Below, piece after piece: positions 16,036 through 50,932 of a stretch of 64,000 bases of DNA. Source of the DNA: a virus (lineage: Duplodnaviria > Heunggongvirae > Uroviricota > Caudoviricetes). Under the pieces are notes generated by a model, which did not search any database, was not told where the DNA came from, and saw only the letters and a list, made by a program, of their open reading frames with translations. A program made the position numbers and the translations under genes. The stretch lies in the IMG/VR virus record IMGVR_UViG_3300029305_003072. One strand, given 5' to 3'. Position 1 is the stretch's first letter. Each line of letters opens with the position of its first letter.

Positions 16036-16036
16036 A

Positions 16037-16508: not shown

Positions 16509-16537
16509 TTGTATCAGTTCCTTTCCTTTGATGAACT

Positions 16538-16566
16538 CATTATAGCACATTCTTGGAGATTTGTCA
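16538..16566 (-). promoter_or_regulatory. promoter, family 2 (TTGACAA-17-TGcTATAAT + conserved leader ..AAACCAGAAAGGAACTGATACT ATG)
   Basis: -10 at plus 16538-16543 and -35 at 16561-16566. About 25 copies of this promoter+leader lie between 16500 and 30300. Confidence 0.75.
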
Positions 16567-16613
16567 ATAGGTTTTTGAAAAATATTTTTCGCCGGGGTTT
16601 CCACTCCCTGCCT

Positions 16614-17219: not shown

Positions 17220-17268
17220 AGTAAATTACCCTTTCTTGTGGAGCACTCGCTCCCTTGATTACATACTT

Positions 17269-17297
17269 ATTATAGCACAGACTTAATAATTTGTCAA
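17269..17297 (-). promoter_or_regulatory. promoter, family 2
   Basis: -10 at 17269-17274 and -35 at 17292-17297. Confidence 0.75.
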
Positions 17298-17305
17298 GCA
17301 CTTTT

Positions 17306-17476
17306 TTAATTTTCATTGGAAAAAGGAACACAAGCTAAAAGCTCATTAGACGCTAATTCGATAATGTATCGATACATGGTTGCATCGTCATGGAGAGTTC
17401 CCCCAAAAGATAAAACAGTATCAATAATAACTTTGTGCAATTCAGCTTTAGCCTTGCGCATTTCTTCTGCGGTCAT
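17306..17476 (-). CDS. small hypothetical protein (56 aa)
   Basis: ATG with AGAGGTGAGG upstream and a TAA stop. Its promoter is TTGATT-17-TATACT at ~17495-17540. Confidence 0.4.
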   Translation of the reverse strand: MTAEEMRKAKAELHKVIIDTVLSFGGTLHDDATMYRYIIELASNELLACVPFSNEN

Positions 17477-17614
17477 TTGCCTCACCTCTTAGGATTAGTA
17501 TACCACCAATTGCGGGAAAAATCAAGATGACAAACTGCACAAAAAATTCGATTGGAAATTTACGGGGACTAGTTATTTTGACGAATTCCGGGCGCCACAC
17601 TCGTTGGCGCACGG

Positions 17615-17652
17615 CGCAAAAAAGCCCCTGCCCCACGAATTGGGGGCAGGGG
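17615..17652 (-). terminator. rho-independent terminator (CCCCTGCCCC..GGGGCAGGGG)
   Basis: A 10-bp GC stem preceded on plus by CAAAAAAG, downstream of gene 17666-18034. Confidence 0.65.
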
Positions 17653-17665
17653 GAGGAAGGGGTCA

Positions 17666-18034
17666 TCACTGGATGACCCTGAAGAACGCCTTGCGCTTCT
17701 CCTCGATGCGCTCGACAGACACACCAATCATGCCACGCACGATGGCGCTCACTCGCTGATTAGTCAGCTCTGCGCAGGCAGGCACTTCCTTAATCAGCTC
17801 AGTGATGGAGAACAGACGATTGGGGTCTGCGCTCATGTGGGACAGAATGGCTTCTGCCACACCAGCATTGGCGACCTGCTGGGCAGTAGGCTTCTTCTCA
17901 GCAGAGTTCTTCTTCGCCAGGAGTTCCAGCTCATGCTCGATGAACTCGACCAGCGCAAGGTTGGACTTGACCTCAGCCAGGGTCAGCAGGGTGTTGAAAT
18001 GGTCCTTCTTAGTCAGCTTCTTAGTGTTTGCCAT
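17666..18034 (-). CDS. paralog family A protein, copy 1 (~122 aa)
   Basis: Start at MANTKK after the conserved leader. It shares the core ELELLAKKNSAEKKPTAQQ..VPACAELTNQRVSAIVRG.IG..VER.EEKRKA.FR with 19201-19569 and 22239-22598. Confidence 0.65.
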   Translation of the reverse strand: MANTKKLTKKDHFNTLLTLAEVKSNLALVEFIEHELELLAKKNSAEKKPTAQQVANAGVAEAILSHMSADPNRLFSITELIKEVPACAELTNQRVSAIVRGMIGVSVERIEEKRKAFFRVIQ

Positions 18035-18088
18035 AGTATCAGTTCCTTTCTGGTTTTTTAGGGTTTTCCTTCCCTTGATTACATACTT

Positions 18089-18117
18089 ATTATAGCACAT
18101 GGTTTTGAGTTTGTCAA
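18089..18117 (-). promoter_or_regulatory. promoter, family 2
   Basis: -10 at 18089-18094 and -35 at 18112-18117. Confidence 0.75.
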
Positions 18118-18683
18118 GAGGTTTTCAAAAAATATTCGCGACTATTTTTTTTATTCCCACAGCATCCTTGCGCTCACTGGACTTGTTTCTGCCCCCTGCC
18201 TTGAGTCTACTCGCACCCTTTCGTTGCTCACCACTCACCCTAGTAGGGGGGAATCTTGCGTAGGAGTTGTAGAGTTTCAATTCGCCTGTGTCTGTTTCCA
18301 CCATCTGTTGCGGTCTTGCCTCGAAGGAGTTCCCCTCTTGATTACATACTCATTATAGCACATCTTGTGCTGTTTGTCAAGTGGTTTTTCAAAAGTTTTT
18401 TGAAAAAGTTTCGGTGGTCTGATTGGTGGGACAATCTAACCCCTCTGCCCAACATTTTTCAACCCTCTGCGCCGACCCATCTGCGGGGGTTTACTTCATC
18501 CCCTTGACACTACTAATTATAGCAGATTTTTAGGAAAATGCAAGTGGTAATGTTGTACAAATAATTGGGTAAAAAACTTGTTGAACTTGTGCATTTTGCC
18601 GAATACCGGGCCGCACATCTGTGTGCGGCCGGCCGATTTTTGTGCAAATTGCACAAATTTAAATTTAATTTGGAAAAAATAAC

Positions 18684-18712
18684 GAAAAAATCGCCCTTTT
18701 GGGGCGATTTTC
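18684..18712. terminator. bidirectional terminator (ATCGCCC..GGGCGAT flanked by A- and T-runs)
   Basis: A-run, 7-bp stem and T-run; adjacent to the stop of 18713-19084. Confidence 0.65.
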
Positions 18713-19084
18713 TCAACTTTTTGGCTTGCGTTTCTGCACAAGCGTCAGTTCGTAGGCATTTTCACCAACTTTTAAGGCGATTTGACGCTCTTTATTGGTG
18801 ATTTCGACCATTTCGTAGCCATTTTCAGCCAAAAACTGAGCAATTTCGGCAATTATCGTGGCTTTTGTGGGGTTTTCCTTGCGTTTTCGCTCGGTTTTCT
18901 GCCCATTTGTCTGCCTTGTGCCAGTATTTGCGAATTTTTTGGCTTGCTTTTCGGCTTCAGGTGAGAGGTCAAAAGCCATTCGCTCACCTCTGTCGATTGC
19001 CTTGTCGTCTGCGATAATCTGTTCGGCTTCTTCTTTGGAGCATTTCAGATTTCGCATAATGCGTTCGACTTGACTTTCTGCCAT
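18713..19084 (-). CDS. paralog family B protein, copy 1 (123 aa)
   Basis: Shares the N-terminal ..S.EEA.Q.I.DDKAIDRG..M....P..EK.AKK motif with 21754-22113. Confidence 0.6.
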   Translation of the reverse strand: MAESQVERIMRNLKCSKEEAEQIIADDKAIDRGERMAFDLSPEAEKQAKKFANTGTRQTNGQKTERKRKENPTKATIIAEIAQFLAENGYEMVEITNKERQIALKVGENAYELTLVQKRKPKS

Positions 19085-19109
19085 TGGTTTACCCCCTTTC
19101 TGTACTTAC

Positions 19110-19138
19110 AGTATAGCACATCTTGGGCGGTTTGTCAA
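19110..19138 (-). promoter_or_regulatory. promoter, family 2 (TTGACA-17-TATACT)
   Basis: -10 at 19110-19115 and -35 at 19133-19138. Confidence 0.7.
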
Positions 19139-19200
19139 GACCTTTTTTGAAATTCCGTGCCCCATTTTGGGGGGGCTATTGCCCCCCCTTGGGGAGTGGC

Positions 19201-19569
19201 TCAGCGAATGGCTCTGAAATAAGCCTTTCGCTTCTCTTCCACACGCTCCACAGAGGTGCCGATGAGACCACGCACGATTGCGGACACTCGCTGATTGGTC
19301 AACTCAGCACACGCAGGCACTTCCTTGATAACCTCAGTGATGGTAAAGAGGCGGTTGGGCTGGCTCTGGAGATGAGCCACGATGGCTTCGCCGATGGAAG
19401 CATTGGCGGTCTGCTGAGCAGTGGGTTTCTTCTCAGCGGAGTTCTTCTTGGCGAGCAACTCCAACTCGTGCTCGATGAACTCCACGAGCATTGCGTTCTC
19501 CGCAACAGCGGGGATAGCCTTGAGCATTGCAAACTTCTGAGCCTTGGTAATCTTCTGAGTAGTAGCCAT
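19201..19569 (-). CDS. paralog family A protein, copy 2 (122 aa)
   Basis: See 17666-18034; it has its own promoter at 19621-19648. Confidence 0.65.
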   Translation of the reverse strand: MATTQKITKAQKFAMLKAIPAVAENAMLVEFIEHELELLAKKNSAEKKPTAQQTANASIGEAIVAHLQSQPNRLFTITEVIKEVPACAELTNQRVSAIVRGLIGTSVERVEEKRKAYFRAIR

Positions 19570-19620
19570 AGTATCAATTCCTTTCTGGTTTTTAAGACTG
19601 TCCTTGTCTTTGTGTATTTA

Positions 19621-19648
19621 TTATATCATAGGTTGAGCGATTTGTCAA
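19621..19648 (-). promoter_or_regulatory. promoter, family 2 (16-nt spacer)
   Basis: -10 at 19621-19626 and -35 at 19643-19648. Confidence 0.7.
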
Positions 19649-19903
19649 GAGGTTTTTTTGATTTTTTTGAAAATCTTTTTTGAACCTTTGGCTTTCTCTC
19701 TCCCTTTGATGTATTCATTATATCACATCTTTGGGGGTTTGTCAAGAGGTTTTTTTAAGTTTTTCAAACTTTTTTTCGGTCTGTCCGCTTGGGTCTCTCC
19801 CTTACTGACATAGATAGTATACCACATCCAAAAGCGAATTGCAATAGGCAAACTGCACAAATTACAGGAAAATTAAAAAGATTATTTTGTGCAACATTTC
19901 CTC

Positions 19904-20000
19904 TTGACAAATTGTGCGGGGCATGGTATAATGGTAAATTCGGCCGGGCACAGTCGCGCCCGGGCCGCGCAAAAAGCGAGGGTTTTACTCCTCGCTTTTC
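19904..20000 (+). ncRNA. micro transcription unit U1: rightward promoter (TTGACA-17-TATAAT), 5' GC hairpin (CGGCCGGGC..GCCCGGGCCG), A-tract, bidirectional terminator; ~65-nt RNA
   Basis: -35 at 19904-19909, -10 at 19927-19932, hairpin at 19941-19970, and terminator GCGAGG..CCTCGC+TTTT at 19976-20000. No ORF. Confidence 0.5.
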
Positions 20001-20263
20001 ACCAGCTTCCGCACTTCGCCCAGAAGCTTCTTGATTTGTGCCATCTTTTCGTAGTCGTCCACGCAGGTTTCGATGGTGTCCACCAGATGGTCAATTTCGC
20101 CATTCAGATTGGCTTCGTACTTGCGGAAGCAGACAGTATCTCTGCCATCGATGAAGATTTCGAGGGGTTCGCCCTCGCGGATGCCCATTGACCGACGGAT
20201 TTCTCTGGGGATAACCACTCTGCCGAGGTCATCAACTCTGCGGATAATTCCAGTTGCTTTCAT
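19985..20263 (-). CDS. AbrB/SpoVT-family DNA-binding protein (92 aa)
   Basis: The N-terminus GIIRRVDDLGRVVIPREIRRSMGIREGEPLEIFID matches the swapped-hairpin AbrB/MazE domain. Confidence 0.8.
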   Translation of the reverse strand: MKATGIIRRVDDLGRVVIPREIRRSMGIREGEPLEIFIDGRDTVCFRKYEANLNGEIDHLVDTIETCVDDYEKMAQIKKLLGEVRKLVKSEE

Positions 20264-20295
20264 TGTATCAGTTCCTTTCCTCTTGGATTGTCTTA

Positions 20296-20324
20296 ATTAT
20301 AGCACATTTGGTGGAGTTTGTCAA
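20296..20324 (-). promoter_or_regulatory. promoter, family 2
   Basis: -10 at 20296-20301 and -35 at 20319-20324. Confidence 0.75.
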
Positions 20325-20331
20325 GACCTTT

Positions 20332-20811
20332 TTACAAGGTCTTGCTTTCACTCACAAAGTATTTTGCATCGTATTTTTCAAGCAAGGCTTTGACTTTCTT
20401 GCTTTTCTCTTGGCTGTCGCAGTAAATGTTGAACACAGACCACTTGCCGATTTTGGGAATGTAGTTGCAAGGGATTTCTTCTGCGGTCAAATCACAATGC
20501 AGGCTTTTGGTGTAGGGGTCAAAGACAGTTGCTTCAATCTTCCAAAGCTTGTCCTTGCGTGCCTTTTCTTCAATGAGTTTTACCACATAGACACCCACCA
20601 AATTACACAGAGCCACAATTCCTGCTTTGAGGTAGAGGTCAAGTTCACACATTAAGTAAACAGTGACGATGGTGTACAGACCATAGGCAACCGCATTGAT
20701 AACTGCGGCAGACACCTTTCCGCATTTAACAGTGGCGATAGATTTTACAGTTTGAATGATAACATTGGCGATGTTCAGAGCGATGAACACAATCAGCAAT
20801 TTCGTATCCAT
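20332..20811 (-). CDS. hypothetical membrane protein (159 aa, ~3 N-terminal TM helices)
   Basis: Minus ORF with a hydrophobic N-terminal half. Confidence 0.55.
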   Translation of the reverse strand: MDTKLLIVFIALNIANVIIQTVKSIATVKCGKVSAAVINAVAYGLYTIVTVYLMCELDLYLKAGIVALCNLVGVYVVKLIEEKARKDKLWKIEATVFDPYTKSLHCDLTAEEIPCNYIPKIGKWSVFNIYCDSQEKSKKVKALLEKYDAKYFVSESKTL

Positions 20812-20905
20812 TCACTTCACTTCCTTTCTGTGGTTATTATAGCACAAATCTCTCTGTTTGTCAATACCCTTTTGGAAATTATTTTTCCGGGCGGAGCCAA
20901 AGGGG

Positions 20906-21151
20906 TTAGAACCCCCTGGCATCCTTGTCGTTGTCCTTGGCAGGCATCGGCACCGCAGGAGTGGGAGCCTTTGGCTTGTTGATAATGGCATCCACCTGCT
21001 CATAGAGTGCGTAAGCCCTCTTGGACTTCTTGTACACCTTGCGGAGTTCGGAGTAGGTGAGGGAGTTGAACTGCTCGTCGGTCATAGTGACACCGACCTT
21101 GCTGAGCTTGTTGCGGATGGACTTGAGGGACATTTCATTGAACATTTTCAT
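20906..21151 (-). CDS. hypothetical protein (~81 aa)
   Basis: Start at MKMFNEM after the leader AAAGGAACTGATACT. Confidence 0.5.
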   Translation of the reverse strand: MKMFNEMSLKSIRNKLSKVGVTMTDEQFNSLTYSELRKVYKKSKRAYALYEQVDAIINKPKAPTPAVPMPAKDNDKDARGF

Positions 21152-21246
21152 AGTATCAGTTCCTTTCTTGTTTTCTGTAATTATTATAGCACACTTTTGG
21201 ATGTTTGTCAATAGGTTTTTTGAAACTTTTTTTCTTTTGTGGGGAA

Positions 21247-21429
21247 TTAGTACCCCCCACAACCGCGGTAAGTGCGGAAGAGACTGTCAGCCTTTTCCTT
21301 GGTCATCGGACCGAACTCTTCGCAGTAGTAGCGGAAAGAGAGTTCATCCCAACACTCGACCACACAATCACCGCCGTTGCAGTAGTTCTGCATTGCGTAG
21401 TCCATGAACTGCTTGTAAGTCATACCCAT
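21247..21429 (-). CDS. hypothetical protein (60 aa, Cys-rich)
   Basis: Minus ORF with promoter TTGACA-17-TATAAT at ~21440-21475. Confidence 0.5.
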   Translation of the reverse strand: MGMTYKQFMDYAMQNYCNGGDCVVECWDELSFRYYCEEFGPMTKEKADSLFRTYRGCGGY

Positions 21430-21600
21430 TGTTGTTACCTCCTTGACTTTGTACCCTTATTATACACCCGATAATGGGAAATGTCAATAGTCAATTTGCA
21501 CAAAGATTTCGCCCCAAAAATTGTTGAAACTGGTTATTTCGCCGAAAAACCGGCGCTGGCGTACGTCAGCGCGCGGCCGAATTTTTGTGCAAAATGACGA

Positions 21601-21646
21601 AGACCCAAGGGCGCCCCCCTGGGTCTTTTCTCGGCTGTTTTGTTTT
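21601..21646 (+). terminator. rho-independent terminator (AGACCCAAGGG..CCCTGGGTCT + T-rich)
   Basis: GC stem followed by TTTTCTCGGCTGTTTTGTTTT. Confidence 0.6.
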
Positions 21647-21753
21647 AGTACCATACCCCAGGGTTGGGCGCCTTCCCCCTAGTGGTTTACCTCCAGACGA
21701 TGACAGCACACCGCCAATGGAATGGGGCCGATTGGCTCGACCCCTTAGGAGCC

Positions 21754-22113
21754 TTAGGAACGAGGGCAGGCAAGTGTGACCTTGTACTTCGTTCCATTGT
21801 GGATGAACAAGAACTCGCGTTCGGGGTTGTTGATGGTGAAATCTTCCACACCCAAAACTCGCAGACCATCCATCATTGCGGAGCAGATTTCAGCCTTTTC
21901 AGGCTTGGCTTTCTTCTCTCGCTTCACTGGGGTGGTGCTGACCTTGCGCTCGGCTTGTCTTGCCTTTTTTGCGCCTTTCTCAAGTTCGGGGTCAAGCTCA
22001 AACATCTTTGCGCCCCTGTCGATTGCTTTGTCATCCTCAATCAACTGGATTGCTTCCTCTCGGCTGATGCCGAGGCTTGCCATGTGCTTGGCAATTAACT
22101 TTTCATCAAGCAT
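21754..22113 (-). CDS. paralog family B protein, copy 2 (119 aa)
   Basis: See 18713-19084. Confidence 0.6.
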   Translation of the reverse strand: MLDEKLIAKHMASLGISREEAIQLIEDDKAIDRGAKMFELDPELEKGAKKARQAERKVSTTPVKREKKAKPEKAEICSAMMDGLRVLGVEDFTINNPEREFLFIHNGTKYKVTLACPRS

Positions 22114-22238
22114 TGACTCACTTCCTTTCTGTGATTATAGTATAGCACAGACAGAGGGATTTGTCAAGTGCTTTTTGAAAATTTTTTCGCCGGGGTCAAG
22201 GTGGGCAGGGGTTACCCCCTGCCCTTGGGGGAGTAGGC

Positions 22239-22598
22239 TTACTCCGCAATCTTGCGGAAGTATGCCTTACGCTTTTCCTCGACACGCTCAACCTTGGTGC
22301 CAATCATACCACGCACGATGGCAGAAACACGCTGGTTGGTCAGTTCCGCACACGCAGGAACAGTCTTGATGAGGTCGGTGATGGTGTAGAGGACACCATC
22401 TTCCATCGCATTGACGATGGCATCAGCGACACCTGCGTTTGCCACCTGCTGTGCGGTCGGCTTCTTTTCCGCAGAGTTCTTCTTGGCGAGCAGTTCCAGT
22501 TCGTGGGCGATGAAAGCCTGCTCATCGGCAGTCAGAGGGTAGTTGGCAGAAATCTGCTTGAAGTAGTCAGCCTTGGTCATCTTCTTGTTGTTAGCCAT
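22239..22598 (-). CDS. paralog family A protein, copy 3 (119 aa)
   Basis: See 17666-18034. Confidence 0.65.
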   Translation of the reverse strand: MANNKKMTKADYFKQISANYPLTADEQAFIAHELELLAKKNSAEKKPTAQQVANAGVADAIVNAMEDGVLYTITDLIKTVPACAELTNQRVSAIVRGMIGTKVERVEEKRKAYFRKIAE

Positions 22599-23157
22599 AG
22601 TATCAATTCCTTTCGGTTTTAACGACTTGAACCTGTCGATGAATTTATTTGTAAGAGGTTTTCCTCTTTACATACTTATTATAGCACATCTTGATTTGTT
22701 TGTCAAGAGTTTTTTTTAATTTTTTTTTCTTTGGCTTGGCTGAGCCTTTAAGCCACAGTTAGGGTGAGTCCGCTTTCACCACCAAAGAAATTGGCTTTTG
22801 TATCCTGCGTATCCACGACATTTTTTCAGCCTGCGTGGTCTGGTTCACATTTGTATTCCGCAAACAGGAACACCTTGCGGTCGGGTCATTGGTAACAAGG
22901 TCTTACTCGCTCTCGTGGGCACCCACCTTTTCGTGGTCGCCTTGCCCTCGCCTTTTGTACCCTTATTGTATCACACTTTAAGGGGTTTGTCAAGGGGTTT
23001 TCTCAATTTTTTTTGAGATTTTTTTTTCGCCCTTGGGGGCAGGCTCACCTATCTCCCCTTGACAATGATAGTATACCACAGACCGCACCAAAAGTCAATA
23101 GGTAATAATGCACAAAAACAGGAATTCAAATCAATCAAACTTTGTGTAACTTTTCTC

Positions 23158-23273
23158 TTGACAAATTGCTGGCGGTGTGGTATAATGGAAATTCCGGCGC
23201 CCACATCCGAGGGCGCCGCGCCCAAAAATTGAAATGAAAAAGCCACCCCTTGCGGGATGGCTCTTGGTTTGTT
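23158..23273 (+). ncRNA. micro transcription unit U2 (promoter TTGACA-17-TATAAT; hairpin CCGGCGCCC..GGGCGCCG; terminator AGCCACCCC..GGGATGGCT + U-rich)
   Basis: -35 at 23158-23163, -10 at 23181-23186, hairpin at 23194-23218, and terminator at 23241-23273. Confidence 0.5.
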
Positions 23274-23514
23274 ACTTTGCCAGGTGTGCCATCAGCACAC
23301 CCAGGGTCATCAGAGCGAACTCAGACTGGACGAACTGGTCGGGGTGGTTGACGAGGGCGAGGACTTCGCCAGTCAGACCATCAACGCAGTGGGCGTGGAC
23401 ACCATCCATGTCCCTCTGCATCATTTCCAGAACTGCGACCTCGGGGTCGTTGGTTTCGACAGTGACCTTGGCATCATCGTAGAAGCTCTCAACAACATAC
23501 TTGTAGTTCATCAT
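23272..23514 (-). CDS. hypothetical protein (~80 aa)
   Basis: Start at MMNYKYVV after the conserved leader. Confidence 0.5.
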   Translation of the reverse strand: MMNYKYVVESFYDDAKVTVETNDPEVAVLEMMQRDMDGVHAHCVDGLTGEVLALVNHPDQFVQSEFALMTLGVLMAHLAK

Positions 23515-23602
23515 GGTATCATTTCCTTTCTGGTGTTTGGGATTTTCCTTTCCCTTTGTTGTATTTATTATAGCACACTCTTGGGGGTTTGTCAAGGGTT
23601 TT

Positions 23603-24010
23603 TTACATTCTTTCAGAAAAATATTTGAAACCCTTTTCGCAGATTTCGAGATAAACCTCTCGGCTTACTCTCACCCACTCTTCGCTTTTTTCTACCTTGC
23701 CTTTGCAAACTGCATACAAAATTGCGTGGCACTGCCATTCGGACTTGCCGACCATGGGGCGGGGAATGGTACAAAAATCAATGTGGAACATTCCAGGGTT
23801 GGTGGTGAGATAATCTTTCATTCTGCGTTGCAGGTTGTAGCTTTTACCAACCTTTACCAAATAGATTTCTTCATGGGTAAAGGGATTGAAATTGGTGCTA
23901 CCTACAAGGTACAAACCTTCGCTTTCGGGTGCAGAGAAGCGCAGGGGGTTTGCTTCGTTAATAAATGCGGGAGTATTTCGCATAGCTTCCAAATGTTCTG
24001 CCCAAGTCAT
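23603..24010 (-). CDS. GIY-YIG / T5orf172-like domain protein (135 aa)
   Basis: GLYLVGS..(12)..EIYLVKVGKSYNLQRRMKDY resembles the GIY..YKIGxT..R motif of T5orf172/GIY-YIG modules. Confidence 0.45.
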   Translation of the reverse strand: MTWAEHLEAMRNTPAFINEANPLRFSAPESEGLYLVGSTNFNPFTHEEIYLVKVGKSYNLQRRMKDYLTTNPGMFHIDFCTIPRPMVGKSEWQCHAILYAVCKGKVEKSEEWVRVSREVYLEICEKGFKYFSERM

Positions 24011-24099
24011 TACTGTCAGTTCCTTTCTTGTTTTCTGAGTTAATTATAGCACATGATTTTGAATTTGTCAATACCTTTTTTCGCCCGGGAGGGCAGATT

Positions 24100-24768
24100 T
24101 TAGAATCTGCCCTTGACCACTTGGAAGCGATAGGCGGAATCGCCCTTGTGAACATTGCGAGTAAACTTGCGGTGAGTTGCCCAAACCGCACGCAGAATCT
24201 GCATTTCGATTTCACAATCTGCGAGGGCGGTGTGTTCCTCGACGAACTCAATGTCTCCGCTGATGAAGCGGTAGCAGATTTCTGCGGTCATCTGAACGTT
24301 TCCGCTCTTGGTTACAAAGCCATTTTCACAGCAGAATTTGTTGTACTTGGTGTACTTGCCGATGGTCTCGAAAAATGCCTGCCAAGTGTCGATGAATTCC
24401 ATTCCCTCGATACACTCAGCAACGAAAGTCTTGTTGAAGTCAAAACCGCTGTTGTGGGCGCAGGCGCAGGACACATTGTTTTCAGCAAGCCACGCAGAGA
24501 AGATTTCGCTTGCCTCTGCTTCGTTGTAGCAGATAATAGTTGCAGGGTCGCGGAGCAGGTCGCGGTAGTAGTCTTTTTTGAATTTGCCATAGAACGCAGA
24601 ATCCAAAAGTAGGTTGCCGATGACCACGATGTTGATTCTGCTGATTTCTGCTCTCTTGGTGAAAGCAATGCCAGCGCAGTGGTAGGTAGGGCAGTGCGCC
24701 TGAGAAGCACCGCCGAGGGTTTCAGTGTCGATAATTGCAAAAGTTTTTTCAGTAAACATTGGTATCAT
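24100..24768 (-). CDS. DEDDh 3'-5' exonuclease (DnaQ/epsilon-like), 222 aa
   Basis: Exo I FAIIDTETLG, Exo II AHNSGFDFNKTF and Exo III HTALADCEIEMQIL are all present. Confidence 0.8.
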   Translation of the reverse strand: MIPMFTEKTFAIIDTETLGGASQAHCPTYHCAGIAFTKRAEISRINIVVIGNLLLDSAFYGKFKKDYYRDLLRDPATIICYNEAEASEIFSAWLAENNVSCACAHNSGFDFNKTFVAECIEGMEFIDTWQAFFETIGKYTKYNKFCCENGFVTKSGNVQMTAEICYRFISGDIEFVEEHTALADCEIEMQILRAVWATHRKFTRNVHKGDSAYRFQVVKGRF

Positions 24769-24843
24769 TTCCTTTCACTTGATAAATTTATTATAGCACA
24801 GATTGTTTGATTTGTCAATACCTTTTTTTAATTTTTCCGGGGA

Positions 24844-25248
24844 TTAGCCTTGCTGTAAGGCTACTCCCCTTTCACGCAGGTATTCTGCGAACTCGTCCGC
24901 AGGAAGTTTGTCCATGAGGGTGGACATGGGCAGGTGGGAGACTTCTTTGGTGTAGTTCCACACGCACACCTCTTTGAAGTTCCTCTTGGTGACAGTATAG
25001 TGGTTCATGCCACATTTCACCAATACCTTGGGGGTCTTGAACAGACCGATGTAGGCTTCTGCATTTCTTACCTTGTTTTCACAGACCGCTTCAAAAAAGC
25101 TCTCGAAAGTGTCGTAGTAAGTGCGGTTGGTGCGGTCGAGGGATTCTTCCGCATCGAGCAGGTGCAGGTGCCACCAAATAGAAGTTTCTTCAAAATCTCT
25201 GCGAGGAGACAGAGAGATGGATTGTCCGCAATCGTAAACCAGTTTCAT
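24844..25248 (-). CDS. hypothetical protein (134 aa)
   Basis: Minus ORF with a family-2 promoter upstream. Confidence 0.5.
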   Translation of the reverse strand: MKLVYDCGQSISLSPRRDFEETSIWWHLHLLDAEESLDRTNRTYYDTFESFFEAVCENKVRNAEAYIGLFKTPKVLVKCGMNHYTVTKRNFKEVCVWNYTKEVSHLPMSTLMDKLPADEFAEYLRERGVALQQG

Positions 25249-25397
25249 GTGTATCAGTTCCTTTCCTTTGTTGATACTATTGTATCACACCTTTTGGGAT
25301 TTGTCAACTGTTATTTTGCACAAATAAATTGCACGGAAAATTGTTGAAACTGGTTATTCTGACGAAAATCGGCGCGCCTGGACCGTGAGCGCGCCGC

Positions 25398-25428
25398 CAA
25401 AAACAAACGACTGCTTTTTCAGCAGTCG
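25398..25428 (-). terminator. rho-independent terminator (ACGACTGC..GCAGTCGT with U-run on minus)
   Basis: Stem preceded on plus by AAAAACAAA, next to the GC palindrome CGGCGCGCC..GGCGCGCCG at 25366-25392. Confidence 0.6.
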
Positions 25429-25688
25429 TAAGTATAACAACCTGCGAAGGGGTCGAACCCGCATTCGTCCGCATCGGGCTCGTCCTCGCTTTCGCCCTGG
25501 GTCTGTTCCAGGTCGCGGTATCCTGCAAGGGTGTATTCCTCGTGCCACTGGTAATGGTTTCCGCAGTGGTCGCACTCGCCAACCTTAAAGAGGGTCACAG
25601 TGGTGTTGTCCACCTCAATGTCGAGAGTATCGAACTCAACAACCTCGCCCCCGCAAGTGGGGCAAACTACAATTCCAGTTTTCAGCAT
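25419..25688 (-). CDS. zinc-ribbon protein (89 aa; CPTCGG...CDHCGN)
   Basis: Minus ORF with two CxxC pairs. Confidence 0.55.
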   Translation of the reverse strand: MLKTGIVVCPTCGGEVVEFDTLDIEVDNTTVTLFKVGECDHCGNHYQWHEEYTLAGYRDLEQTQGESEDEPDADECGFDPFAGCYTYDC

Positions 25689-25691
25689 TCT

Positions 25692-25832
25692 TCATCATCC
25701 TCCAATCTTTCTTTGATTGCTTCAACGATTATCTTGCCGACCTTGACAGCCATCATCAAGGCGAATGCTCCGACAAAGCCAACCAATGCCCAGCCGATTT
25801 CTTCGGGGATTGCGCAAATCATTTCTAACATT
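25692..25832 (-). CDS. small membrane peptide (~46 aa)
   Basis: ATG after the conserved leader; the hydrophobic core is WALVGFVGAFALMMAV. ATGCTGA overlap with the next gene. Confidence 0.35.
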
Positions 25833-25901
25833 TTTATCAGTTCCTTTCTTCTTTGTGTCTTAATTATAGCACATCAATTGCCGTTTGTCAAGAGGAAATT
25901 C

Positions 25902-26354
25902 TCAGATTTCTCTGAGAATTTCCAAGATGTTCTGCACATCGTAGGCTCTGCCTGTCCAGTTCGTTCTGTTGCGTTCTTCATCGTCGAACAGAATGTCGAG
26001 AGGATTGTTGCAGAAGTTCTGCTTCGGAGTGCCATAGGGAACGATGTGGATTTCGTTCCAGTTCACGCTCGGCAGGTGCTTTCTCAGCCAGTTCAGCTTG
26101 ACTTCGGTAACTGCTTCGTTGTATTCAGCAGTTCCACTTTTGCTCAACCAAGAGATAACTGCGAGGTTGTAGCCGTTCCGCTGAAGTGCGTTCAGCTTGC
26201 GAGCCAGTGCGGAGAGGTGGAGCAGAGGTCTTGCGTTTGCGTAGGGGAAAGTGTCACCTGCGATGAGGTATTCGAGCCAGTTCTCTACACCATAGAGGTC
26301 AGCGATTGTGCCGTCCATGTCGAAGTTAATTGTGATGTTCATCTGCTTTGCCAT
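25902..26354 (-). CDS. HAD-superfamily 5'(3')-deoxyribonucleotidase-like protein (~150 aa)
   Basis: The motif I sequence INFDMDGTIADL (DxDGT) and overall size match NT5C-type phage nucleotidases. Confidence 0.6.
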   Translation of the reverse strand: MAKQMNITINFDMDGTIADLYGVENWLEYLIAGDTFPYANARPLLHLSALARKLNALQRNGYNLAVISWLSKSGTAEYNEAVTEVKLNWLRKHLPSVNWNEIHIVPYGTPKQNFCNNPLDILFDDEERNRTNWTGRAYDVQNILEILREI

Positions 26355-26444
26355 TTGTATCAGTTCCTTTCCTTTTTGTACCTTAATTATACACCCAAAA
26401 CCGTGATTTGTCAATACCTTTTTTGAAAAAAGGGAAAGTTTTTT

Positions 26445-26918
26445 TTACTTTCCCTTTTTCATTTCTCTTGCCCGCTTCTGTGCCTTGTGGAGCACATCCA
26501 CATTGGTCAGGCTTGCGTTTTCGTACTTGACCTGATACTGAACGCCACCGATTTCCACATCACCGCAGTAGTCAAAGCGGACATGGTCGGGAGTGTACTC
26601 ACCCAGACCGCAAGCCTTGTGCAGATAGGCTTCGCACTTGTGACCCTTGTTCTTGTAAGGAATGGCTTCAAATTCAGCCTTGGTCATGATGGGGGTTGCA
26701 CCCTTGGCAATCAGCTTATCCTTTTCGGATACGCTGATGTACATCTTGAATTTCTGCTGTCCGCCGTTCTTGGAGGACTCAAATTCTTCGTGTGCCCAAC
26801 GAGGAGCGATGTGCTTGCAGTTGTAGATGTAGATGATACCCTTGCGCTCGAAGAAAATCAGAGTGCGGTCAGCGCCAGTCAGCTTGTTGTAGTAGCGGAA
26901 GAAATTACCCTTAGTCAT
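26445..26918 (-). CDS. hypothetical protein (~157 aa)
   Basis: Start at MTKGNFF after the conserved leader. Confidence 0.5.
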   Translation of the reverse strand: MTKGNFFRYYNKLTGADRTLIFFERKGIIYIYNCKHIAPRWAHEEFESSKNGGQQKFKMYISVSEKDKLIAKGATPIMTKAEFEAIPYKNKGHKCEAYLHKACGLGEYTPDHVRFDYCGDVEIGGVQYQVKYENASLTNVDVLHKAQKRAREMKKGK

Positions 26919-27123
26919 TGTTATTATCTCCTTTTCAGTTCCTTTTTGTATCTTAATTATAACACCAGTTTCCCGGTTTGTCAAGAACTTTTTTTCATTT
27001 TCTTGAACTTTTTTTTGATTTAGTGGTCTCTCTCAACCACAAGAACATTGTATCACATCCGGAATAGAAAGTCAAGCACAATTTTAGGAAAAACAACTAT
27101 TTATTTTTTGTGCAAATTGCCTA

Positions 27124-27240
27124 TTGACAAATTGCTGGGGCTGTGGTATAATGGAAATAACGCGCGCCTGGGCCGTGGGCGCGCGACCGAAAAAGCAAAA
27201 TGGAAAAAGCGCCTTAGTAGTAAGGCGCTTCGATTTCCAG
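27124..27240 (+). ncRNA. micro transcription unit U3 (promoter; hairpin CGCGCGCC..GGCGCGCG; terminator AGCGCCTTA..TAAGGCGCT)
   Basis: -35 at 27124-27129, -10 at 27147-27152, hairpin at 27160-27186, and terminator at 27206-27238. Confidence 0.5.
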
Positions 27241-27453
27241 TATCTCGGTTTGAATGAGTGTAAAATGTGCCCTGAACCGACACCCGCACCCGCAAATGTA
27301 ATCGTCTTTTTTCTCTCTGCGGTTGCTTGTATTGTCCTGGTACACCAGTTCGGATTGGGCACTACTCCCGCAGTTAGGACATCTAATGCGAGGGTCACGC
27401 AATTGTGCTTGCCACTCTCGTGCTATTTCTGCTGCTGTTTTCATTGTTCTCAC
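27214..27453 (-). CDS. zinc-ribbon protein (79 aa; CPNCGS...CGCGC)
   Basis: Minus ORF whose stop lies inside the U3 terminator. Confidence 0.5.
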   Translation of the reverse strand: MRTMKTAAEIAREWQAQLRDPRIRCPNCGSSAQSELVYQDNTSNRREKKDDYICGCGCRFRAHFTLIQTEILEIEAPYY

Positions 27454-27489
27454 CTCTTGGCATTATTATAACATGGTTTGGGGATTTTG

Positions 27490-27714
27490 TCAACCCCCGC
27501 AAGCACATTTTTTTTCGTAATGTTCTCTAACAAGGAGAGCATCCCGCACTCGCTTCTGGTTGAAATCTTCTTTGTGAATTACTGTGCAATAGTAGTATTT
27601 TGTGCGGAAAATGGGCCAATTGGGATGAATTATCTTTCGATAGACTACATGAACATAGTCTTCGCCGAGCTTCCATGTGGCTTCGTACTCACCATCTGCC
27701 CCTTTAATAATCAT
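27490..27714 (-). CDS. hypothetical protein (74 aa)
   Basis: Minus ORF. Confidence 0.45.
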   Translation of the reverse strand: MIIKGADGEYEATWKLGEDYVHVVYRKIIHPNWPIFRTKYYYCTVIHKEDFNQKRVRDALLVREHYEKKCACGG

Positions 27715-27866
27715 CCATTATCACCCCTTTTGAATTTCTGTCTGTTGTATTTCTTCTTGCTTTCTACCACAGAGCCACGCTTGCGAAAGTGGAGATACTG
27801 CTGAAGTTCTTCTCCCTCTTTCTTGAACATTCTGCGGTCGATTGTGTTTTTCTTTTTCTTACTCAT
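27711..27866 (-). CDS. small basic protein (~51 aa, Lys/Arg-rich)
   Basis: Start at MSKKKKN. Confidence 0.4.
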   Translation of the reverse strand: MSKKKKNTIDRRMFKKEGEELQQYLHFRKRGSVVESKKKYNRQKFKRGDNG

Positions 27867-27928
27867 TTCGTTTACCTCTTTTCTTTTTGTAATTAAATTA
27901 TACCATAGATTTAGGGATTTGTCAACCC

Positions 27929-28255
27929 CTAAATCCAATTATTTTCACAGTCCCATGCTTTTGCCCGTCTGATGATTTCAGAGTAACCAGCAGGAGGATA
28001 ACCACCAGTAGTTTCGTAGAACATCTTGCAGGCAATCTTCCATCTTGCAGGGTAGGCGGTGACAAGAATGTTGCTCTTGGCATCCATTACCATTAAGATA
28101 CCAGTGGAAGTCAAGCAGTTTCTCTTTCCTCTGTAAATTGTGGTGCAAATGATTTCGCCGAAGCCTAACTCTCTATCCATTTTTACAAGTCTTTCTCTGC
28201 GTTCGGTGTAGCAGTGGTCGGTGAAACTCACGGTGATGCTCATGCTCTTTAACAT
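27929..28255 (-). CDS. hypothetical protein (~108 aa)
   Basis: Start at MLKSMSITV after the leader. Confidence 0.5.
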   Translation of the reverse strand: MLKSMSITVSFTDHCYTERRERLVKMDRELGFGEIICTTIYRGKRNCLTSTGILMVMDAKSNILVTAYPARWKIACKMFYETTGGYPPAGYSEIIRRAKAWDCENNWI

Positions 28256-28322
28256 TTGATTTACTCTCCTCTCTTTTTGTATCTTAATTATAACACGGGA
28301 AAGGGGTTTTGTCAACCCCTTT

Positions 28323-28763
28323 TCAAAAAATTTTTTCGCCAATGTTTGTCACAACTGTGGCTTCAATCCACCGCACGCAAATGCCCTTGCTTTCCAAAAG
28401 GCGATAGTATTGCAGGTCGTTGTCGAAATTTTGTTCGAAGTCTGCGATTGCCTTAAAGTTTGCGAGGATGGGGTTCTTGTGGTAGCGGAACTCAAGACGA
28501 GCACGCCAAGCCTCTTTGCTCTGCGAGGGTGCGAGGATAACAAAGGGAATGTTGTTGTTCATGCAGTATTCAATCACCACACGATGAGCGGAGATGAATA
28601 CATTCTTGTCAGTAGCGAGGGCAACCGCCGTCCGCACATAGTTTTCTTCCCATCCTGCGACCTTGACAAATGCGGAGCTGTCGAGGTCAACAGTAGTATT
28701 GGGGTTATTTCTACAGTAGGTAGATTTTCCACTACCCTGATAGCCACAGTAAATCATTTTCAT
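28323..28763 (-). CDS. P-loop NTPase, nucleotide/nucleoside kinase-like (~146 aa)
   Basis: The Walker A motif IYCGYQGSGKST sits at the N-terminus, at a size typical of phage dNMP/polynucleotide kinases. Confidence 0.55.
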   Translation of the reverse strand: MKMIYCGYQGSGKSTYCRNNPNTTVDLDSSAFVKVAGWEENYVRTAVALATDKNVFISAHRVVIEYCMNNNIPFVILAPSQSKEAWRARLEFRYHKNPILANFKAIADFEQNFDNDLQYYRLLESKGICVRWIEATVVTNIGEKIF

Positions 28764-28814
28764 TTCAGTTCCTTTCCTTTTGTACCTACATTGTATCACA
28801 GAGAAAGGCTTTTG

Positions 28815-29138
28815 TCAAGCCTTTTCTGCGAGAATTTCCAAAAGTTCATAGCCAGAAAGGAAAGTATTTCCTGCGAGGTGGTAGGCTCGGCAGTGCTCAG
28901 CCAGTTCTTCCCTTGCTCTGTCGTAGCTACGCAGAGCGGAAACCAGTACCCATTTATCCTCGGTTACATCGCCCGCAAACATCTTGTATTCTGCGGACTC
29001 TTGGGGCAACATAGCCATTGCCTTCTGTCTGCGGTTGATGACTCTCACACAGTACTCAATCTTGTCCTTTGCATTGCGAGTAGCGATGACGAGTTCGTCT
29101 CTCTTGGTCTCTTCGGCAGTCTTGGTAATCTTCTTCAT
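28815..29138 (-). CDS. hypothetical protein (~107 aa)
   Basis: Start at MKKITKTAEE. Confidence 0.5.
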   Translation of the reverse strand: MKKITKTAEETKRDELVIATRNAKDKIEYCVRVINRRQKAMAMLPQESAEYKMFAGDVTEDKWVLVSALRSYDRAREELAEHCRAYHLAGNTFLSGYELLEILAEKA

Positions 29139-29246
29139 GGTGTTTAGCTCCTTTGTTCTTTTGTTGTACTTAGTATACCACACGGAGACCGATTTGTCAA
29201 TACCTTTTGGGAAAAATAATTATTTATTTTTTTTCTAATTTTCCTC

Positions 29247-29370
29247 TTGACAAAATGGCTGGGATGTGTTATACTGGCAATTAGGGCGCGCCAGGACCGT
29301 TGGCGCGCCTATGGCGGGATTCGTCACATTGCACAATTAAAGGGTGTGCCTTACTCTTGGCACACCCTCA
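29247..29370 (+). ncRNA. micro transcription unit U4 (promoter TTGACA-17-TATACT; hairpin GGCGCGCC..GGCGCGCC; terminator AGGGTGTGCC..GGCACACCCT)
   Basis: -35 at 29247-29252, -10 at 29270-29275, hairpin at 29284-29309, and terminator at 29341-29368. Confidence 0.5.
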
Positions 29371-29572
29371 TCAGCAGTCTCTCATAGGACACACCTGCTA
29401 CCTTACACAGCACACGCAGGTTGTCTCTCACCATCAGCTTCTCTGCGTAGGTGATGTCCTCGTTGTCCTTGTTCAGTACCATGATGATGTACTTGTACTG
29501 ATGGCTTGCCTGCACCTCAGGCTTTAGCTCTCTTACTGTGCTCAGCATCTTGTTGATAGGTCTCTTGTTCAT
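29351..29572 (-). CDS. hypothetical protein (~73 aa)
   Basis: Start at MNKRPINKM. Confidence 0.45.
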   Translation of the reverse strand: MNKRPINKMLSTVRELKPEVQASHQYKYIIMVLNKDNEDITYAEKLMVRDNLRVLCKVAGVSYERLLMRVCQE

Positions 29573-29589
29573 TGTCTTGTCCTCCTCTA

Positions 29590-29745
29590 TTAGTTCTTGT
29601 TGACAGCGATGATAGTGGCAATAGCAGCTACGCCAAAGGCTACGACTAGAGCCACAAGAGTGATACCCAGCCACTCAGGACAAGTAGTAGTATTGTCAAG
29701 GTTGCTGTTAGCAATCCACATAGCGATGTTGTTAGAAATGGTCAT
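29590..29745 (-). CDS. small membrane protein (51 aa)
   Basis: ATG after AAGGAGATAACAACA; the hydrophobic core is LGITLVALVVAFGVAAIATIIAV. Confidence 0.4.
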   Translation of the reverse strand: MTISNNIAMWIANSNLDNTTTCPEWLGITLVALVVAFGVAAIATIIAVNKN

Positions 29746-29950
29746 TGTTGTTATCTCCTTTACTCTGTGAGGTTGTGTCCCTCTCTCTTTGTGTCTTTAT
29801 TATAGCATTACGGGAGCTTTTTGTCAAGAGTTTTTTTGCTTATTTACGCAACTTTTTTTTAGCACCCCCTACAGTATGCCCCACTAGGGGACCTGACGCC
29901 TGTGCTCGGTGGCTACTACTACATAGTATAATAGAGTAAGGCTGTGTACC

Positions 29951-30232
29951 TTACTCTACATCTACTACTCTGTCATCATAGATAGTATCACTGCCCATGG
30001 CTAGCATGGTTAGCACTACCCTTGTGCCTACACATGGTACAGTGTCACCCTCTACATCATAGCACCACACATTGCCTGTGGTGTCCTCTGCGCTGATGGT
30101 GTTACCCTCTACCTCTACTACCACAGCTTCTCTTGTGTACCTATCATTAAGCTGTGCTTGACCTAGTGCATTGAAGGTCACTACCAGTAGTATAGCACAC
30201 AGCACACACAGTACCTTCTCACTCATTGTCAT
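29951..30232 (-). CDS. secreted/lipoprotein-like protein with N-terminal signal peptide (93 aa)
   Basis: The N-terminus MTMSEKVLCVLCAILLVVTFNALGQAQ is signal-peptide-like. Confidence 0.5.
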   Translation of the reverse strand: MTMSEKVLCVLCAILLVVTFNALGQAQLNDRYTREAVVVEVEGNTISAEDTTGNVWCYDVEGDTVPCVGTRVVLTMLAMGSDTIYDDRVVDVE

Positions 30233-30364
30233 TACCTCACTGTTCCTTTGTTGTATCTACAGTATACCACATTACAGGATGTTTGTCAATAGGTAAGATG
30301 CACAAATGTGTAGAACTTTTTTTGTGTAGGGTATTATTGCATGGCAGCTAGGGCCGCGCCGCAC

Positions 30365-30465
30365 GTGCACGGCCCAGCGTGTGTATTGTGTATGTATTAT
30401 TGTGTGTGTATTGTTTATTATACATACATTATTGTGTATGTATGAGGATGTGTTGTGTGTGTCTT
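30365..30465. repeat. TG/TA-rich low-complexity tract (TGTGTAT/TATTGTGT-type microsatellite-like)
   Basis: Simple-sequence composition with no ORF. Confidence 0.6.
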
Positions 30466-30635: not shown

Positions 30636-31451
30636 TCAATTTTCAATTTCGGAAAACGATAATTCTGGGAAAAAAGATAATAGGTACCCTATTGTCAAAT
30701 TATTATACTCAGTATATGGTATTCTAATAAGACGAATATTATTTTCCTTACACCATTGATTTTTTCTTGTATCACGCTCTTGTTGAATTTTTAACTGTTC
30801 TTCTCCACCCCATAATTCAACAGCTTCAAAATGTTGCTGACCATCATATTCAATCAATCCCAATAATTTACCATCTTTAAAAATGGCGAAATCAAATGGT
30901 GATAAAATATTGAACTCTTTAATCCTATACTGTGTTTGAAAATCAATACCTGCTTTTACCAATAGCTGAGTAAGTTTTATTTCTCCGCTGGATTGAGAAG
31001 CGCATCCACAAGAAATAGTACGATTATGAAATTGACCTTTTAAATGCTCAACTCTGACATCAATAATGTTACCACACTCGCACTTACATTTAACATAACT
31101 GTGATTACCTTTTGATTCAGCTCTATCTATAATTTCTAATAAGCCAAATCTATCTCCTTTATGCCAAGAAATTAAACCTCTTTCTTCTGCTTTTTGTCTA
31201 ATCTTTTCTCCTTTGCATTTATTACAACATTCACTTTTTCCATTTACTAAGCTATCTCTTGAAACACTAATTACTTCTCCACATAATCCACATTTACAAA
31301 ACCAAAATGTTGAATGCTGCTTAGAAGTTGGATGATAATCTCTTTCAATAACTTCCCATTCTCCAAATTTCATACCTGGTATAATTTTTAATGGTGGCAT
31401 AATATTTCCTCCTTGTTTTATGCTATTATATATAATTTTCCCGAAACTCAT
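30636..31451 (-). CDS. zinc-finger + DUF559-like (restriction-endonuclease-fold) nuclease, homing-endonuclease candidate (271 aa)
   Basis: Two Cys clusters (CKCGLCGE..CCNKC; CKCECGN..CGC) are followed by a C-terminal region IEYDGQQHFEAVELWGG..ERD..KNQWCKENNIRLIRIPY, which resembles the EvDG..H-type Vsr/DUF559 endonuclease domain. Confidence 0.45.
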   Translation of the reverse strand: MSFGKIIYNSIKQGGNIMPPLKIIPGMKFGEWEVIERDYHPTSKQHSTFWFCKCGLCGEVISVSRDSLVNGKSECCNKCKGEKIRQKAEERGLISWHKGDRFGLLEIIDRAESKGNHSYVKCKCECGNIIDVRVEHLKGQFHNRTISCGCASQSSGEIKLTQLLVKAGIDFQTQYRIKEFNILSPFDFAIFKDGKLLGLIEYDGQQHFEAVELWGGEEQLKIQQERDTRKNQWCKENNIRLIRIPYTEYNNLTIGYLLSFFPELSFSEIEN

Positions 31452-32303: not shown

Positions 32304-32546
32304 CTAGCCGCCGTTCTGGTCACAGGGTTTATATTTTTCTATCATCTCTTGGATATGCGGGCACCGCTCTACAAATCGCAAGAAATAATCATATCCATAA
32401 AGGGCAAAAATGCGGTCAGCTTTAAAAGTATCTCGTTCTACCCGATACTTCTGCGGGTCGCAGCCAATTTGCCCTAGATATGCGGCATAGCTATCTGCTT
32501 CCCACATACCTTCAACTTCTAATAAAATCAAAGTCCATTTATCCAC
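32304..32546 (-). CDS. hypothetical protein (80 aa)
   Basis: Minus ORF overlapping folD by 8 nt. Confidence 0.45.
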   Translation of the reverse strand: MDKWTLILLEVEGMWEADSYAAYLGQIGCDPQKYRVERDTFKADRIFALYGYDYFLRFVERCPHIQEMIEKYKPCDQNGG

Positions 32547-50885: not shown

Positions 50886-50932
50886 TTAAATTATTCTTAT
50901 TATTTAGATTTTTAAATTTTAATAGGAATAGT

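Follow-up and report, generated by a model that had tools for sequence, protein, structure and literature searches.

What is the function of the short rightward promoter units that interrupt the leftward genes of an uncultivated phage of the class Caudoviricetes? In the 64,000-nucleotide (nt) stretch of DNA analyzed here (IMG/VR virus record IMGVR_UViG_3300029305_003072; the window), four small units lie antisense among clusters of leftward genes, and in each of them a consensus promoter is closely followed by a G+C hairpin. An earlier note, made from the sequence alone, had drawn attention to these units and had offered small regulatory RNAs, insulators between transcription units, and binding sites for a palindrome-recognizing protein as explanations. 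Promoter matching and inspection of the sequence confirmed the four promoters and their adjoining hairpins. We found that the hairpin belongs to a conserved family with at least 136 distinct copies, that its stem is under selection as a paired structure, and that it lies between gene modules with a constant polarity. Tentatively, we read the four units as the promoter-bearing form of a conserved insulator cassette that works in both directions at module boundaries; the function of the element is not settled.

A conserved hairpin family antisense to the early genes

The related set was assembled from the protein adjoining unit 1, relatives of which were found in 45 IMG/VR loci from phages of 120–200 kb. 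A covariance model built from 56 copies of the hairpin detected 83 copies in 24 of these loci, invariably antisense to the genes, and the search of metagenomic phages that the earlier note had proposed thereby recovered a conserved family. A hidden Markov model of the hairpin only, from which the promoter was excluded, gave 186 matches, every one of the same polarity. The 136 distinct copies, located in 45 related contigs of uncultivated gut phages and constant in their polarity relative to the genes, are the basis of the configuration and terminator counts given below. Across the 45 loci, a strong hairpin follows 108 of 152 antisense consensus promoters, versus 61 of 1190 sense ones.

The eight copies in the window and all copies in the related phages lie between modules, with a spacing of 1–2 kb. 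A canonical terminator stands ahead of the hairpin, as the genes read and at most about 70 nt away, in 113 of the 136 copies; a divergent sense promoter comes next, with 40–60 bp between the two -35 hexamers. This position, past the terminator of one leftward module and before the next module's first promoter, fits the insulator role suggested in the earlier note. Because the hairpin is separate from the terminators of the leftward operons, the objection that the note itself had raised, namely that the palindromes might be only halves of those terminators, falls away. Synteny among the related loci is mosaic, and the junction that carries unit 3, with its full promoter, has a different type of cassette at the orthologous position in related locus L001, as is expected for cassettes that shuffle.

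A first pattern scan of IMG/VR (with TGGTATAATGGAAAT) was too unspecific, returning at least 117 mostly unrelated matches, and a stricter pattern returned 3. In INPHARED (GenBank phage records), no useful match was obtained by megablast of the region, blastn of one unit, or tblastn of the neighboring protein. The early region of the human-gut phage phAss-1, the closest named relative of the phage and a member of the "code 15" clade (PMC10607447), yielded just one weak match to the covariance model. No description of the element was found in the phAss-1 paper (PMC10607447), in the other literature searched, or in annotated phage records.

The stem is maintained as a paired structure

The stems are 7–10 bp long and, in our own helix calling, almost purely Watson–Crick (614 pairs, with three G.T and one A.C), and most loops measure 7–11 nt. 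Stem sequences differ between copies, even inside one genome, with pairing retained. In the model alignment, 77.8 per cent of the cells are paired versus 61.8 per cent in shuffles (none of 500 shuffles attains the observed figure), and cells changed on both sides number 121 versus 62 in shuffles; in a control in which the partner was slid by 1–3 columns, 32–52 per cent were paired. Compensating changes are also seen between orthologous copies in the window and in loci L001 and L004, whose flanking genes are about 70 per cent identical. The stem is thus under selection as a paired structure. Stems that vary and stay complementary argue for a folded single strand, be it RNA or extruded DNA, and against a sequence-specific binder of double-stranded DNA, and we therefore rejected the proposal of a site for a palindrome-recognizing, AbrB-like protein. 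RNAalifold predicted no structure from a MAFFT alignment because the stem registers slip by one base, and the structure was supplied to the covariance model instead.

Outside the stem, the column profile reads TATAAT-GG-AAATTC-stem-loop(..CGTG)-stem-G-CC-N-AAA, in which the loop (..CGTG) and the flanks (AAATTC and GCC-N-AAA) are partly conserved. The arms are enriched in alternating CG/GC (62 of 136 arms versus 41 ± 5 expected). A test for the functional strand, in which G.U-type were compared with A.C-type pairs in the antisense RNA, was uninformative (19 versus 20; in clean helices, three versus one).

Several known identities were considered for the hairpin. A canonical intrinsic terminator was rejected in both directions, as the loops are mostly longer than the usual 3–5 nt and the U-tract is missing rightward and weak leftward; the tail scores of the hairpin (-2.7 sense, -1.7 antisense) compare with a background of -2.1 and with -3.4 to -5 for the true terminators nearby. 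An RNase III processing site of the kind found in T7 and SP82 early mRNAs, which has a stem of about 20 bp, was rejected on stem length. A mimic of a CRISPR repeat (RNA anti-CRISPR) was rejected because the stems differ within a genome and no repeat-like 3' handle is conserved. Rfam gave no match at the gathering score across the whole window and none on the units at E<=5 (15.5–30.8 kb).

The promoter is the variable part of the cassette

The commonest configuration, found in 81 of the 136 copies (about 60 per cent), has a full antisense promoter; 12 of these 81 also have a full sense promoter facing the same hairpin, and 22 have a stub on the sense side that consists of the -35 element only. 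About 25 copies have a sense promoter only (any sense promoter, about 27 per cent), and about 30 (about 22 per cent) have no promoter. Since the hairpin is intact in every configuration, it is the constant part of the cassette and the promoter the variable part. Moreover, a hairpin that keeps its polarity, pairing, and flanks when the rightward promoter is missing, or when only a sense promoter is present, must be more than the 5' end of a small RNA.

The two sides differ in geometry. On the antisense side, the -10 element lies 7–9 nt from the stem, which places the whole hairpin at the RNA's 5' end; on the sense side, the distance is 2–4 nt, which places the start site inside the stem. Two consensus promoters face each other across one hairpin at L003 10958-11053, L015 2695/2789, L032 5211/5304, L037 13180/13275, and L042 12596/12690. 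Facing start sites are only about 25 bp apart, so both polymerases cannot be bound together. The distance from the antisense promoter to the terminator ranges from 7 to 43 nt, and a polymerase roadblock of fixed geometry at the terminator is therefore not supported. By a crude measure, the two-way character of the terminator does not differ between copies with and without an antisense promoter.

The antisense promoters share a conserved spacer of their own (AATTGCTGGGG). In addition, the motif TTGTGCA (one mismatch allowed) is found about 9 nt upstream of the -35 element in 48 of the 81 antisense promoters, versus 2.7 per cent of background windows, and also upstream of the adjacent leftward promoters. 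Such an operator-like motif suggests a dimeric regulator that co-controls divergent promoter pairs. In the window, the motif occurs as a perfect palindrome (TTTGTGCAAATTGCACAAA, 18639-18657) and as half-sites at 19854, 19887, 21497, 21585, 23109, 25317, 27108, 29330, and 30299, which mark one class of promoters, made up of the antisense promoters together with the one that opens each module.

The units and further copies in the window

All four unit promoters carry TG before the -10 element, and in all four a stem of G+C only begins 7–9 nt past it (Table 1). The palindromes had been described as one type, with two arms around 8 nt; all are G+C palindromes, and only that of unit 4 literally repeats one sequence, around 9 nt, while the other three differ. 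The A-tract and bidirectional terminator that had been reported downstream are likewise present, although they are mainly the intrinsic terminator of the leftward operon, whose minus-strand U-tract appears as the A-run. For rightward transcription, only unit 1 offers a good U-tract; those of units 2 and 3 are weak, and unit 4 has none. The RNA of unit 1 is predicted to end at its neighboring terminator, giving a length of about 60 nt.

For the four predicted RNAs, folding energies range from -31 to -47 kcal/mol (z = -2.4 to -5.6 versus shuffles). As the earlier note had held, none contains a credible open reading frame (ORF): they overlap only start codons that lack a ribosome-binding site and ORFs that start upstream of the transcription start. 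Each is complementary to the terminator of the upstream operon, and that of unit 1 also to about 15 nt of coding sequence.

The covariance model found eight polar hairpins in the window, all on the plus strand and none outside 17.5–29.4 kb. The two "promoterless relatives" mentioned in the earlier note are both real, and with two further copies the total is eight rather than six. The four copies without a full promoter hold recognizable decayed promoters, which recur in L001 and L004.

Table 1. Promoters, hairpins, and terminators at the module boundaries of the window
Feature	Position	Strand	Remarks
Unit 1 antisense promoter	19904..19932	+	TTGACA-17-TGgTATAAT; 12/12 consensus match
Unit 1 polar hairpin	19941..19967	+	G+C; CGGCCGGGC...GCCCGGGCCG
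Terminator of leftward AbrB/MazE-like gene (19985-20263)	19971..19999	-	A-run, stem, and T-run, hence works both ways
Unit 2 antisense promoter	23158..23186	+	12/12 consensus match
Unit 2 polar hairpin	23195..23218	+	CGGCGCCC...GGGCGCCG
Leftward terminator after gene 23272-23514	23237..23270	-	Rightward U-tract weak
Unit 3 antisense promoter	27124..27152	+	12/12 consensus match
Unit 3 polar hairpin	27161..27185	+	CGCGCGCC...GGCGCGCG
Leftward terminator, unit 3	27204..27236	-	Listed at 27231-27206, minus strand
Unit 4 antisense promoter	29247..29275	+	-10 TATACT; 11/12 consensus match
Unit 4 polar hairpin	29284..29310	+	GGCGCGCC-N9-GGCGCGCC
Unit 4 second hairpin, end of leftward gene	29342..29367		Neither strand has a good U-tract
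Leftward promoter, back to back with unit 1	19816..19844	-	TTGCAA-17-TGgTATACT; TTGTGCA upstream
Leftward promoter, back to back with unit 2	23070..23098	-	
Leftward promoter, back to back with unit 3	27047..27075	-	
Leftward promoter, back to back with unit 4	29172..29200	-	
Polar hairpin with decayed promoter	17588..17615	+	Absent from the earlier note
Polar hairpin with decayed promoter	about 18607..18632	+	Absent from the earlier note; followed by perfect palindrome TTTGTGCAAATTGCACAAA at 18639-18657
Polar hairpin, first "promoterless relative"	21553..21572	+	Leftward terminator next at 21600-21627
Polar hairpin, second "promoterless relative"	25370..25396	+	Leftward terminator next at 25407-25429

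Comparison with described systems

The nearest RNA analogues of the units are OOP of phage lambda and sar of phage P22. These are single-copy, short cis-antisense phage RNAs of about 70 nt with a promoter of their own and an intrinsic terminator; OOP is antisense to the end, and sar to the start, of a neighboring mRNA. The units likewise have a dedicated promoter, and their predicted short RNA, without a credible ORF, would be antisense to a neighboring mRNA. Unlike the units, OOP and sar do not have a conserved family of 5' hairpins, whereas here four to eight copies occur per genome, many of them promoterless, and the overlap is with a terminator rather than with much coding sequence.

The nearest described system is the promoter-early stem-loop (PeSL) cassette of T4-type phages (Arbiol et al. 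2010, PMC2839356; Comeau et al. 2014, PMC4122927), in which stem-loops stop upstream transcription and let the local promoter escape (PMC2839356). PeSL cassettes abut consensus promoters and are proposed to mediate the shuffling of modules (PMC2839356, PMC4122927). The cassettes described here resemble them in having a near-consensus host promoter, an A+T-rich upstream region, and an abutting or overlapping G+C stem-loop, and they likewise recur, with module exchange, between small accessory early genes of a plastic region. The sense-promoter copies of the related phages, with their -10 element 2–4 nt from the stem, reproduce the PeSL arrangement. The defining feature of a PeSL, a promoter of the same direction that overlaps the stem-loop, is not found in the four units, in which the promoter is antisense and the whole hairpin is transcribed. 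Further differences are the separate canonical terminator, the fixed polarity of the hairpin, the long loops, the partly conserved loop and flanks, the Firmicute-type host, and the unrelated phage lineage.

Other comparisons are more distant. Like the nut site of lambda N and the put site of HK022, the units place an RNA hairpin close to the promoter in a transcript that meets a terminator; unlike them, they have no boxA, only a single hairpin in place of the two-stem fold of put, no rightward gene within reach (the first lies at about 34 kb), and no recognizable cognate protein, and their hairpins are kept without a promoter. By these features, the units do not qualify as nut or put sites. 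The repetitive extragenic palindromes (REP) and bacterial interspersed mosaic elements (BIME) of enterobacteria are also repeated G+C-rich palindromes that lie after genes, near terminators, with a defined polarity. In contrast to those, the present elements have no GTAG head and no RAYT transposase, are phage-borne, and are tied to promoters.

Proposed mechanism and alternatives

Read along the genes, the cassette starts with the canonical terminator of the upstream module, continues with the polar G+C hairpin and, in most copies, a head-on consensus promoter of the host sigma-A type, and passes through an A+T-rich stretch with TTGTGCA motifs to the promoter that opens the next module. We propose that it insulates in both directions. 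The hairpin would serve as an attenuator or as a 3' structure for leftward read-through, by the logic of PeSL stem-loops (PMC2839356, PMC4122927), and the head-on promoter would oppose polymerases that read through. The same promoter would yield an RNA of 60–90 nt that is capped by a stable 5' hairpin, is antisense to the early mRNAs upstream at their 3' end, and is stopped by the same terminator read in reverse. The anatomy, conservation, covariation, polarity, and position of the cassette are observed; we infer that these RNAs are produced and end at the terminator and that the hairpin or the promoter lowers read-through. The added antisense promoter is a new feature relative to cassettes of the PeSL type.

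Four points weigh against this interpretation. As judged by its loops and its tail (weak in the sense direction, none in the antisense), the hairpin makes a poor canonical terminator; with a good terminator already ahead of it, a backstop looks redundant; the variable distance between antisense promoter and terminator does not support a precisely placed polymerase roadblock; and the partly conserved loop and flanks are left unexplained by insulation alone.

There is a small but appreciable chance that the RNA product is itself the point, that is, that the units form a small-RNA family with a conserved 5' hairpin, acting in cis as OOP-like antisense RNAs or in trans as decoys for an RNA-binding protein. 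The hairpin could then shield the RNA from the 5' exonucleases of a Firmicute host, and action in cis could proceed by double-strand RNA cleavage at the 3' ends of early mRNAs. Small RNAs had been proposed in the earlier note, and short non-coding rightward RNAs remain a sound prediction, given the consensus promoter, the fixed distance from the -10 element in what is the commonest geometry, and a terminator, usually with runs on both sides, 10–35 nt on. The partial conservation of loop and flanks and the full complementarity of the RNA to the terminator of the upstream operon also speak for such a role. What it does not account for is that about 40 per cent of the copies lack the antisense promoter and yet keep a perfect hairpin of the same polarity; in addition, stems that differ so widely within a genome make a sequence-specific mimic unlikely, G.U-type pairs are no commoner than A.C-type ones, and no Rfam family matches. 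That the element has no function of its own, the antisense promoters being by-products of the duplication or inversion of abundant early promoters beside ordinary terminators, is very improbable. The region is indeed saturated with near-identical promoters and shows paralogous genes and mosaicism, but the same geometry and polarity recur in 136 distinct copies on contigs whose genes are only 40–70 per cent identical, the stems show compensating changes, and the hairpin follows antisense promoters far more often than sense ones.

Two alternatives give the hairpin an active role as a site. It is unlikely, in our judgment, that the palindrome works as DNA, in the form of a hairpin or cruciform extruded through promoter opening and supercoiling and used by a structure-specific protein, for priming or replication, as a gyrase or REP-like site, or for the recombination that shuffles modules. 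Near-perfect Watson–Crick pairing without strand bias, promoters that face the palindrome from either or both sides, A+T-rich flanks around arms enriched in alternating CG/GC, and cassettes that are swapped between relatives at a spacing of 1–2 kb would all fit. Stems of 7–10 bp with loops of 7–11 nt extrude poorly, however, the region showed no protein of the HUH, Rep, or RAYT type, and restriction to the early region would be odd for replication. More doubtful still is the idea that the nascent antisense RNA carries a nut- or put-like site, at which an early factor would make polymerase resistant to terminators; long antisense transcripts would then shut off the early modules and run towards the late genes, which begin at about 34 kb. 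The hairpin is promoter-proximal at a fixed distance, the conserved spacer of the antisense promoters could bind a factor, as in lambda Q, every unit is oriented towards the late gene cluster, and, because the hairpins are all co-oriented, promoterless copies would still be transcribed as repeated loading sites. Against this stand the lack of a boxA-like element, the absence of any rightward gene in at least the first 4.7 kb past the last unit, promoters that match the host consensus and would be active from the start of infection, the unexplained sense-only copies, and the failure of a Pfam scan of ten early proteins to yield a candidate factor. Equally improbable, though of wide consequence, is that the polar hairpin is the site at which a dedicated phage factor, acting on nascent RNA or extruded DNA, turns constitutive antisense RNAs of 60–90 nt into processive antisense transcription. 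Were this so, the early modules would be silenced by head-on collision and double-strand RNA, and polymerase would be fed towards late genes in which TAG is recoded; such an early-to-late switch made of repeated promoter-hairpin units would be a new mode of temporal control in phages.

As a well-delimited and strongly conserved non-coding element, the cassette marks each boundary between early modules. For the large gut phages of the stop-codon-recoding clade, which are uncultivated, there is no experimental system. The covariance model is ready for use in annotating the early regions of metagenomic phages, and the cassette predicts abundant small antisense RNAs that can be sought in gut or rumen metatranscriptomes. 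If the insulator interpretation is correct, the cassette would also be a compact part for synthetic biology.

Early region and phage context

The units lie in an early region of about 14 kb (positions 16,000-30,300) with ~27 leftward consensus promoters, perfect or near-perfect, each ahead of a ribosome site and a small gene. Perfect TTGACA-N17-TATAAT sites number 27 in the window versus 0.01 expected from shuffles, and related loci have 21–37 such promoters per 20 kb. The early leader and ribosome site are near-identical across promoters (…AGAAAGGAACTGATAC(A/T)ATG), with roughly one promoter per gene. The genes encode AbrB/MazE-like, HD-domain, nucleotidase-like, and T5orf172 proteins and paralogous families; the Pfam scan of ten early proteins revealed no obvious candidate for an RNA-binding protein or a structure-specific nuclease. 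Three paralogs of a 119–122-aa protein (17666-18034, 19201-19569, and 22239-22598) and two of a 119–123-aa protein (18713-19084 and 21754-22113), all without a Pfam domain, are present, and the early region has been enlarged by module duplication.

The region looks like an early region of the host-takeover type. In the host-takeover module of SPO1 and the pre-early region of T5, short early genes mostly have their own strong host-type promoter and ribosome site and often lie in or near terminal repeats. The present region resembles these in its cluster of short early genes with their own promoters and in the location of several related loci at contig ends (one contig has the region at both ends), and differs in that no sequence relationship was found. 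To our knowledge, neither system has an equivalent of the antisense promoter-hairpin units (for the SPO1 host-takeover context, see PMC6873191).

As to the host, the 122-aa paralog at 19201-19569 has a 100 per cent amino-acid match in a contig (L166, JAZNAJ010000173.1) binned as a Clostridia metagenome-assembled genome (MAG), and relatives occur in other bins of Clostridia type. The -10 form TGTGnTATAAT is typical of Firmicute promoters. This "Clostridia bacterium" MAG includes many contigs with paralogous phage early genes, and further relatives of the 122-aa paralog are binned with MAGs of Lachnospiraceae, Acutalibacteraceae, Treponema, and Elusimicrobiaceae. Phage contigs seem to have been mis-binned into bacterial MAGs. 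The source samples are of ruminant-gut origin (MAG set JAZNAJ01 and IMG/VR sample 3300045988).

The structural genes run rightward from about 34 kb, and phAss-1 is the named phage to which they are most closely related. From there to the end of the window (34000-64000; e.g. 50916-60293), the late genes need TAG as a sense codon: with TAG no longer counted as a stop, the combined length of stop-to-stop frames that reach 200 codons increases from 4639 to 8095 codons, with almost no gain in the early region, and the tape-measure protein becomes one frame of 3125 codons with 51 in-frame TAGs. A search of the window for tRNA and tmRNA genes found none, hence no suppressor tRNA. This recoding of late genes fits the "code 15" clade of phAss-1 (PMC10607447). 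G+C content is 44–48 per cent in the early part (16000-30000) versus 30–42 per cent in the late part (34000-64000), and the sign of the GC skew switches at about 34 kb, where gene orientation changes as well.

Between the early region and the late genes, the minus strand carries HNH/homing-endonuclease-like and FolD-like (methylene-tetrahydrofolate dehydrogenase/cyclohydrolase) genes at 30636-31451 and 32539-33351. Just upstream of the first early promoter is a degenerate TG-rich repeat tract (30330-30460; TGTGTATTGTGTATGTATTATTGTGTGTGTATTG…), and ahead of it a hairpin, GGGCCG…CGGCCC, that is a weak match to the covariance model. At the opposite end, the leftward consensus promoter at 16027-15999 leads, in place of an ORF, into a G+C-rich structured stretch (GGTGGGGTTCAACGGGCCGCGG…GGCCCGATTTTCC; 15880-16027, minus strand), which is not a tRNA and has no Rfam match. 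The same combination of an ORF-less promoter and a structured stretch occurs in L003 (13485) and L004 (12526), and the stretch may represent a small RNA of the sense strand where the early region ends.

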